DNA from: Escherichia coli
GTDB lineage: Bacteria; Pseudomonadota; Gammaproteobacteria; Enterobacterales; Enterobacteriaceae
Reading direction: 5' to 3' (one strand)
Assembly (NCBI RefSeq): GCF_009931435.1
Contig: NZ_CP043414.1
Length of the DNA: 64,000 nucleotides
In this document: positions 44,940-45,511 of the stretch, piece by piece
How positions within the stretch are numbered: position 1 is the stretch's first letter
Layout: every line of letters begins with the position of its first letter
The notes under the pieces: generated by a model
The model's database searches: none
What the model was told of the DNA's origin: nothing
The model's input: the letters and a program-made list of their open reading frames with translations, nothing else
Made by a program: the position numbers and the translations under genes

Positions 44940-45511
44940 AGGGTGAATTCCTTTTCATGATCCCGATACGTTAACTGTTACGGCGTAATCATCCTTTTTA
45001 TGAATGATTCGAGTGGAAATATACGTTATATAAATTTATAAGAGACTTTTTCTATTAATTGTTGTATTAATTGGTAGTGCGAATATGACATTAAATGTCA
45101 GACAATTTCAGATTGTAGCCAATAATATTAATCGCGCGGATTTTAATGATCGATGTCAATCAATGTCAAATGTTTCACCGGATGAAAACACCGACCAGGA
45201 GAAATATTAATATTCAGCATGGTGATGTTTTCTTGGGAAGTGTGTGATTCTGAGCGATAAATATAAATAATTAATGGCTGTTACAGGCATTAATGTGCAT
45301 TAATTCATTGTTATCGCTTATATATCACTTTTTTATTCCATACCACAATTTCAGAATTTAGCCTGTAATATGCGCTTCAAAGAGCCGGTGAGATGGAAGC
45401 AATAGTGATAAGAATGTTAAAGATATCCGATATCTGGTATCAGGCTCCTGCATGTGCCAGCAGGAGCGAGTAAATCGTGAGAGGCTGTGATTACAGCGGT
45501 GAGACAGGTAC

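Follow-up and report, generated by a model that had tools for sequence, protein, structure and literature searches.

The gap between yibL and the lipoprotein-adhesin genes of this Escherichia coli chromosome raises two questions, namely what function a long AT-rich stretch may have at this position and whether its base composition betrays a foreign origin. The sequence-only reading had taken it for the likely control region of the lipoprotein-upaG unit, with the composition of an H-NS-silenced, horizontally acquired promoter. We analyzed the gap within the window, that is, the whole stretch of 64,000 nucleotides of E. coli DNA, and compared it with corresponding loci. In total, 17 alleles from five genera were collected; 10 loci were obtained by a related-locus search of genome contigs, and other genera were added via contigs encoding homologues.

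The block at 44940-45511 (572 bp) is exactly the yibL-to-sadB intergenic region, base 44939 being the A of the ATG of the sadB-like gene (minus strand) and base 45512 the final base of the yibL stop codon. The gene order along the minus strand is mtlA, mtlD, mtlR, yibL, the block, the sadB-like gene, the adhesin gene and lldP, and mtlR and yibL are separated by yibT, a plus-strand gene (Table 1). Homologues of the sadB-like gene are named in RefSeq either 'SadB/YajI family lipoprotein' or 'DUF3251'. An identical 572 bp is carried by NZ_CP074749 (E. coli R32_14_1F), in which RefSeq annotates no feature within it.

Table 1. Positions of genes and of observed or predicted elements in and around the yibL-sadB intergenic region (window coordinates).
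Feature	Position	Strand	Details
mtlA	48477-50390	minus	
mtlR	46378-46965	minus	
yibL	45512-45874	minus	upstream neighbour, same strand as sadB; open reading frame and RefSeq annotation of the identical locus
GC-rich 8-bp hairpin	45444-45467	minus	45 nt past the yibL stop; GCUCCUGC-loop-GCAGGAGC
Distal copy of 27-nt element	45345-45371	minus	ATATTACAGGCTAAATTCTGAAATTGT; core GCTAAATTCTGAAAT; conservation island 45367-45340
Hypervariable AT-rich spacer	45181-45344		distal element to promoter; length conserved, sequence not (17-allele alignment)
Core sigma-70 promoter (predicted) of the sadB-adhesin operon	45140-45169	minus	-35 TTGACA 45169-45164, 18-nt spacer, -10 TAAAAT 45145-45140
Transcription start (predicted)	45132-45133	minus	7-8 nt after the -10, behind a GC-rich CCGCGCG discriminator; from promoter geometry
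Proximal copy of 27-nt element	45102-45128	minus	ATATTATTGGCTACAATCTGAAATTGT; about +5 to +31 of the predicted transcript
5' leader (predicted)	44940-45133	minus	about 195 nt
Small leader hairpin / inverted repeat	44987-45009	minus	AAUCAUUC-loop-GGAUGAUU; fold z-score -2.35
Shine-Dalgarno AAGGAA	44948-44953	minus	loop of a short, fully conserved stem; island 44960-44942
sadB-like DUF3251 lipoprotein gene	44255-44939	minus	interrupted near 44789 by a +1 frameshift; AT-rich 5' half
YadA-like trimeric autotransporter adhesin gene, UpaG/EhaG/SadA type	39658-44211	minus	1517 aa; 51.5% GC

At 35.8% GC (32.9% without the 70 yibL-proximal bases) as compared to 49.3% for the whole window, the block has the lowest GC content among five nearby intergenic regions, the others standing at 38.5, 41.2, 45.6 and 51.6%. 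Its A/T-only runs of 9 nt or more number five versus 1.5 expected per 572 bp, and both runs quoted in the sequence-only reading were located in it, TTATATAAATTTATAA at 45026-45041 and ATATTAATATT at 45204-45214. Ranked against all 572-nt windows of the 64-kb stretch, its GC content stands only at the 10th percentile. The AT-rich tract also exceeds the block as originally delimited, in that 44600-45440 has 33.8% GC and reaches across the sadB start into the 5' half of this gene. The lowest GC content of the 64-kb window (~27%) is found at about 52440-53200, in an Rhs toxin/immunity region; this genuinely mobile region (52440-55470, downstream of yibH) comprises Rhs-tip, Tlde1-domain and Imm57 immunity genes.

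A predicted near-consensus promoter faces sadB. It matches the sigma-70 consensus at 11 of 12 positions and scores 12.1 bits with a position weight matrix (PWM), the next best site in the block reaching 7.2. Across the collected alleles, TTGACA-N17/18-TAnnAT is the top PWM match in 15 of the 17, at identical alignment columns, with scores of 10.6-13.4 bits versus at most 8.9 for the next best site. These alleles include Salmonella, E. fergusonii, E. marmotae, two Pseudocitrobacter species and the E. coli strains CFT073 and EDL933; at the aligned position the promoter is absent from the Enterobacter and Citrobacter alleles, which are those with the most distant SadB. Phylogenetic footprinting of 12 non-redundant alleles, whose mean pairwise column identity is as low as 0.38, delineated five main conservation islands (45461-45444, 45367-45340, 45180-45127, 44960-44942 and 44987-45009), and the promoter, the best-conserved element of the block, lies within the third. 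These results bear out the proposed role of the block as the upstream control region of the lipoprotein-adhesin operon, and we infer that the 45140-45169 promoter is the one actually used, with transcription starting near 45133.

The distance from the -10 hexamer to the ATG is 163-208 nt in the 15 promoter-bearing alleles, and a terminator scan found no terminator-like site on the minus strand between promoter and sadB. As a whole, the predicted leader is no more stable than its shuffles (z +0.79), and its consensus fold (-7.1 kcal/mol, covariation term +0.39) has no covariation support. Only two structures recur, the small hairpin and the Shine-Dalgarno stem-loop. The former is kept in seven alleles of the E. 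coli type, where one both-sides change and G-U pairs occur, and the latter is formed by an AUGAA/UUCAU stem whose UGAA/UUCA helix occupies alignment columns 182-185/192-195. The placement of the Shine-Dalgarno sequence in a loop (44942-44960) is a geometry that we take to resemble CsrA binding sites. Within the leader, CTACCAATT at 45069-45077 equals the right half of the K-12 lldP O1 LldR operator AATTGGCCCTACCAATT; since it has no partner half-site at the correct spacing, this match is probably due to chance. A sixth, short conservation island (45084-45070) overlaps this half-site.

We then asked of the same data whether the gap might hide an unannotated gene for a small protein or a small RNA, given that 572 bp is long for a gap holding a terminator and a promoter and that open reading frames of 31-41 aa, the only ones in the block, do exist. 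Such a gene is very improbable. No conserved open reading frame was found in the block: tblastx comparison between alleles yields matches in all six frames with stop codons included, the 41-aa frame is interrupted in three alleles (L011, L022 and L007) and many indels are not multiples of three, in agreement with the earlier statement that the region has no open reading frame of note. A small RNA is disfavoured by the absence of any Rfam match at E <= 1 in a scan of 43500-47000, and by the lack of a terminator-like site on the minus strand and of covariation support for a leader structure. Together with the base composition and the empty annotation of the identical locus, these observations uphold the description of the block as AT-rich and non-coding. 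Its sequence is present as a single copy in every genome carrying it and is therefore not a mobile repeat; a mobile element or MITE was ruled out by this and by the absence of long terminal repeats.

At the opposite end of the block, the GC-rich hairpin past yibL folds better than its shuffles (z-score -2.65; 0/200 shuffles fold as well), and the island at 45461-45444 corresponds to its 3' arm and loop. The corresponding place is taken by different hairpins in other alleles, that of C. youngae being a classic terminator. In the window allele, the elements of an intrinsic terminator are present only in part: the GC-rich stem exists, the U-tract is absent, CUGAUACCAG follows the stem and the terminator scan made no call. 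The hairpin is a probable 3'-end or terminator structure of yibL, and because it lacks a U-tract, read-through from yibL may add to sadB transcription.

A further possibility, raised by several short inverted repeats in the block, is that it acts as a phase-variable invertible promoter switch similar to fimS or the UpaE element; promoters of UPEC adhesins can be invertible (PMC6083910). These repeats, however, do not exceed 18 nt, are imperfect (72-92%) and include no pair that brackets the promoter. There is no adjacent recombinase gene, and the fetched alleles are all collinear, in one orientation relative to yibL and sadB. A switch of this kind is accordingly the least credible of the readings we weighed, and is extremely improbable.

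As to the origin of the locus, few spots on the E. coli chromosome are as polymorphic. The window allele (at least 95% identical) occurs in 28 of 5426 complete E. coli genomes, related alleles 66-80% identical to the window in ~1850, and EDL933-type alleles, 58-66% identical to the window, in 2269. Gap alleles are hypervariable (58-81% identical), and SadB proteins are as little as 65% identical within E. coli. Gap length in E. coli varies between 480 and 572 bp, and between 543 and 572 bp if the divergent E69 allele is set aside. This divergence spills into the neighbouring yibL: the YibL protein does not vary across E. coli (100% identity), yet 28-31 of 363 nucleotides (~8%) differ, all at third codon positions, nearly as many as separate E. 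coli from E. marmotae (38). yibL is a halo of deep divergence beside the hypervariable sadB-upaG locus.

Extreme allele divergence, an AT-rich block and the fact that K-12 lacks the block, sadB and upaG are all features that the promoter of a recently acquired foreign island would show, AT-rich because it is foreign and hence subject to xenogeneic silencing. Comparison across genera argues against this origin. The order mtlD-mtlR-yibT-yibL, gap, sadB and YadA-like adhesin also occurs in Salmonella enterica, E. fergusonii, E. marmotae and two Pseudocitrobacter species, and the same order is found in Citrobacter youngae and Enterobacter wuhouensis; the wider arrangement mtl, yibL, AT-rich gap, sadB, adhesin and lldP is shared by Salmonella, E. 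fergusonii, E. marmotae, Pseudocitrobacter and Citrobacter. The gap measures 443-572 bp across genera (287 bp in Enterobacter), with a GC content of 29-36% in 17 of 17 alleles, so that the same locus with the same AT-rich gap occupies the same chromosomal site in at least five genera. In K-12, the region has been lost by a clean deletion running from 12 nt past the yibL stop to ~58 nt past the upaG stop, and the same deletion has been described before (Grin et al. 2014, PMC3953254). Moreover, upaG resembles the host in GC content, no integrase genes, tRNA genes or flanking repeats were found at the locus, and an allele of one type or another is present in at least 76% of the complete E. coli genomes. 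Since the AT-rich gap is found at the same site in all relatives, AT-richness is a property of the control region and not a sign of recent foreign origin. Recent acquisition is accordingly improbable, and on the comparative evidence the locus is ancestral, which corrects the view of the region as foreign DNA; the term 'horizontally acquired' is not supported.

The other half of that proposal, silencing by H-NS, fared better. An extended AT tract over the promoter (several hundred bp, ~65% AT or more), as used to recognize H-NS targets, is present at 44600-45440. The high-affinity H-NS nucleation motif TCGATAAATT is not enriched beyond what base composition would give, with three 2-mismatch matches and none at 0-1 mismatch in the block, and 87 occurrences found across the window versus 74 +/- 9 expected. 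Expression of upaG and ehaG was reportedly raised in hns mutants of CFT073 and EDL933 in the work of Totsika et al. in 2012. Two further papers name H-NS as a repressor of UpaG (PMC5012682, PMC3966885, both citing Totsika et al. 2012). For Salmonella, sadBA was not expressed under any culture condition tried (PMC3953254), and our literature search found nothing linking STM3691 with H-NS. Because the H-NS-repressed CFT073 and EDL933 alleles share promoter and architecture with the window allele, there are good grounds to consider that H-NS silencing acts on the latter as well. The AT tract and the published repression of UpaG from sister alleles sustain the H-NS part of the earlier claim, and cross-genus synteny removes the part concerning horizontal acquisition.

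The upstream regions of upaG in CFT073 and ehaG in EDL933 are indeed closely comparable to the window. Both lie between yibL and a sadB-like gene, with gaps of 557-558 bp and 33-36% GC, and both carry TTGACA-18-TA(A/G)AAT 190-208 nt before the ATG, as in the window architecture. The distal 27-nt element aligns at the same position in both; it is well kept in CFT073 and has diverged at 5 of 15 core positions in EDL933. The window allele, for its part, is 78-80% identical to that of CFT073 and 58-66% to that of EDL933, is rare and has its own sadB frameshifted. Salmonella sadBA is likewise similar in its mtl-yibL-gap-sadB-sadA-lld order, in its gap (526 bp, 31% GC), in a TTGACA-17-TAGCAT promoter at the same aligned position and in a distal element at -221. 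It differs in being barely alignable outside the conserved islands and in having no recognisable proximal repeat copy.

Taken together, these results make it likely that the block is a tandem intergenic control region, composed of the yibL end, a conserved sigma-70 promoter, a long leader and a presumably H-NS-silenced AT tract. According to this model, yibL would end at the block, its 3' end being marked or stabilised by the hairpin at 45467-45444, and ~270 bp of AT-rich, fast-evolving DNA would follow, with a single conserved distal element (45371-45345). The predicted promoter (TTGACA-18-TAAAAT, 45169-45140) would then start the sadB-adhesin transcript near 45133, with a ~195-nt leader that appears largely unstructured, bears a small hairpin and ends in the Shine-Dalgarno sequence within a short stem-loop. 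The 840-bp AT-rich tract (44600-45440) would cover promoter, leader and the first half of sadB. Since H-NS polymerises on tracts of this type, the promoter, strong as it is, would be silenced in laboratory conditions and would fire only upon a counter-silencing signal. Much of this is already known, as the adhesin operon sadB-upaG and the H-NS regulation of sister alleles are largely described and the block is largely an ordinary control region. What is added here is a precise promoter prediction with its ~195-nt leader, a map of the conserved islands and the repeated 27-nt element as a target for mutagenesis. Pathogenic E. coli and Salmonella use UpaG, EhaG and SadA for adhesion and biofilm formation; these adhesins are silent in culture, and the promoter, the islands and the 27-nt element provide starting points for how the sadB-upaG operon is switched on.

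This model leaves the conserved distal element unexplained. The two copies of the 27-nt element (direct repeat D2) are identical at 23 of 27 positions, a level matched by none of 300 dinucleotide shuffles. The distal copy constitutes a conservation island, and its position relative to the predicted start stays at -212 to -229 in all promoter-bearing alleles including Salmonella, despite the hypervariable spacer that separates it from the promoter. The proximal core lies at +14 to +17 in E. coli-type alleles, and the distance between copies is 229-243 bp in eight alleles. These features are compatible with operators of a specific regulator, acting either by DNA-loop repression or by SlyA/RovA-like counter-silencing of H-NS, which would supplement the control-region model. 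On the other hand, the element shows neither a clear dyad nor a clear direct repeat, and the alleles are related, so that positional conservation represents few independent events. We regard an operator function of this kind as unlikely on balance.

Regarding the identity of such a regulator, the left edge of the distal copy approaches the SlyA consensus TTAGCAAGCTAA with 1-2 mismatches in the CFT073, L002, PE164, L009, ZH193 and E. marmotae alleles, these sister-allele matches being located at -222 to -233; in the whole 64-kb window, no site comes within 2 mismatches of this consensus. In the window allele, however, the SlyA-like half-site has lost 1 nt (ATTACAGGCTAA, more than 3 mismatches), and TTA-N6-TAA occurs nowhere in the block. 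Furthermore, TCTGAAAAT, the part shared across genera, is not the SlyA motif, and as about 15 regulator consensus sequences were compared, one partial match is expected by chance. A SlyA operator was therefore rejected for the window allele, failing on both the consensus and TTA-N6-TAA, while it fits sister alleles. We know of no experimental link between SlyA and upaG. By-eye comparison with consensus sequences gave no conserved fit for Fur, FNR, CRP, Cra, IHF, Lrp, Fis and OmpR, nor for ArcA, DeoR, ArgR, RcsAB, sigma-54, sigma-E, MarA and LldR. The promoter spacer does contain an FNR-like TTGAT-N4-ATCGA, which the other alleles do not conserve.

Further parallels are fimB and hlyE, where SlyA counteracts H-NS (PMC3173223, PMC2156107) and where an AT-rich, H-NS-covered upstream region likewise harbours a discrete conserved site ~170-230 bp upstream of the start; at fimB, SlyA sites at -194 to -167 antagonise H-NS (PMC3173223). 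The SlyA consensus used here is that confirmed in PMC5797941 and PMC3173223. As compared to fimB and hlyE, sister alleles have a SlyA box with 1-2 mismatches, whereas the window allele fails the consensus. The broader proposition that the 27-nt element, at about -220 and +14, is an operator pair whose regulator would decide, through a repression loop or as a counter-silencing switch, when the usually cryptic sadBA/upaG operon is expressed in Escherichia, Salmonella and relatives is doubtful.

The distal element could also be read as a second upstream promoter (P2) without a -35, consisting of a -10-like hexamer followed by CTGAAAA, which would generate a leader of ~410 nt. In most alleles a hexamer such as TAAATT, TAAAAT, CATAAT or TATAAT, whose second base is A and whose sixth is T, is found at the aligned position (TATAAT in C. 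youngae), and the proximal copy also holds a good -10 (TACAAT). There is, however, no acceptable -35 at 16-18 nt, and in most alleles the site is outside the top five sigma-70 PWM matches. Read as a sigma-E promoter, with TCTGA as its -10, the site would need GGAACTT, which upon inspection of the alignment is not conserved 16 nt upstream. A second promoter here is quite unlikely.

The genes downstream of the block show variation of their own. The lipoprotein gene had been described as frameshifted, and we could confirm this by comparison to the closest genome, NZ_CP074749, relative to which the sadB-like gene has one extra T in a T-run (~44789; 44785-44795). The extra T could be a sequencing error or mark a true pseudogene; if real, the frameshift should be polar on upaG. 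The adhesin is shorter here than in the closest genome (1645 aa there), the difference being located in internal repeats of ~213-240 bp (42250-42700). In the E. coli pig isolate PE164 (L006, 1-1773), the adhesin gene is truncated beside an IS3-family transposase. In one genome, that of E. coli EC32 (L008, 1418-2455), ISEc40 (IS630-like) interrupts the gap ahead of the sadB homologue. In EDL933, the third codon of the sadB homologue is TAG (ATGAACTAG; L005, 6007-6030), and the RefSeq start is a downstream non-ATG codon, so SadB may be defective in O157:H7.
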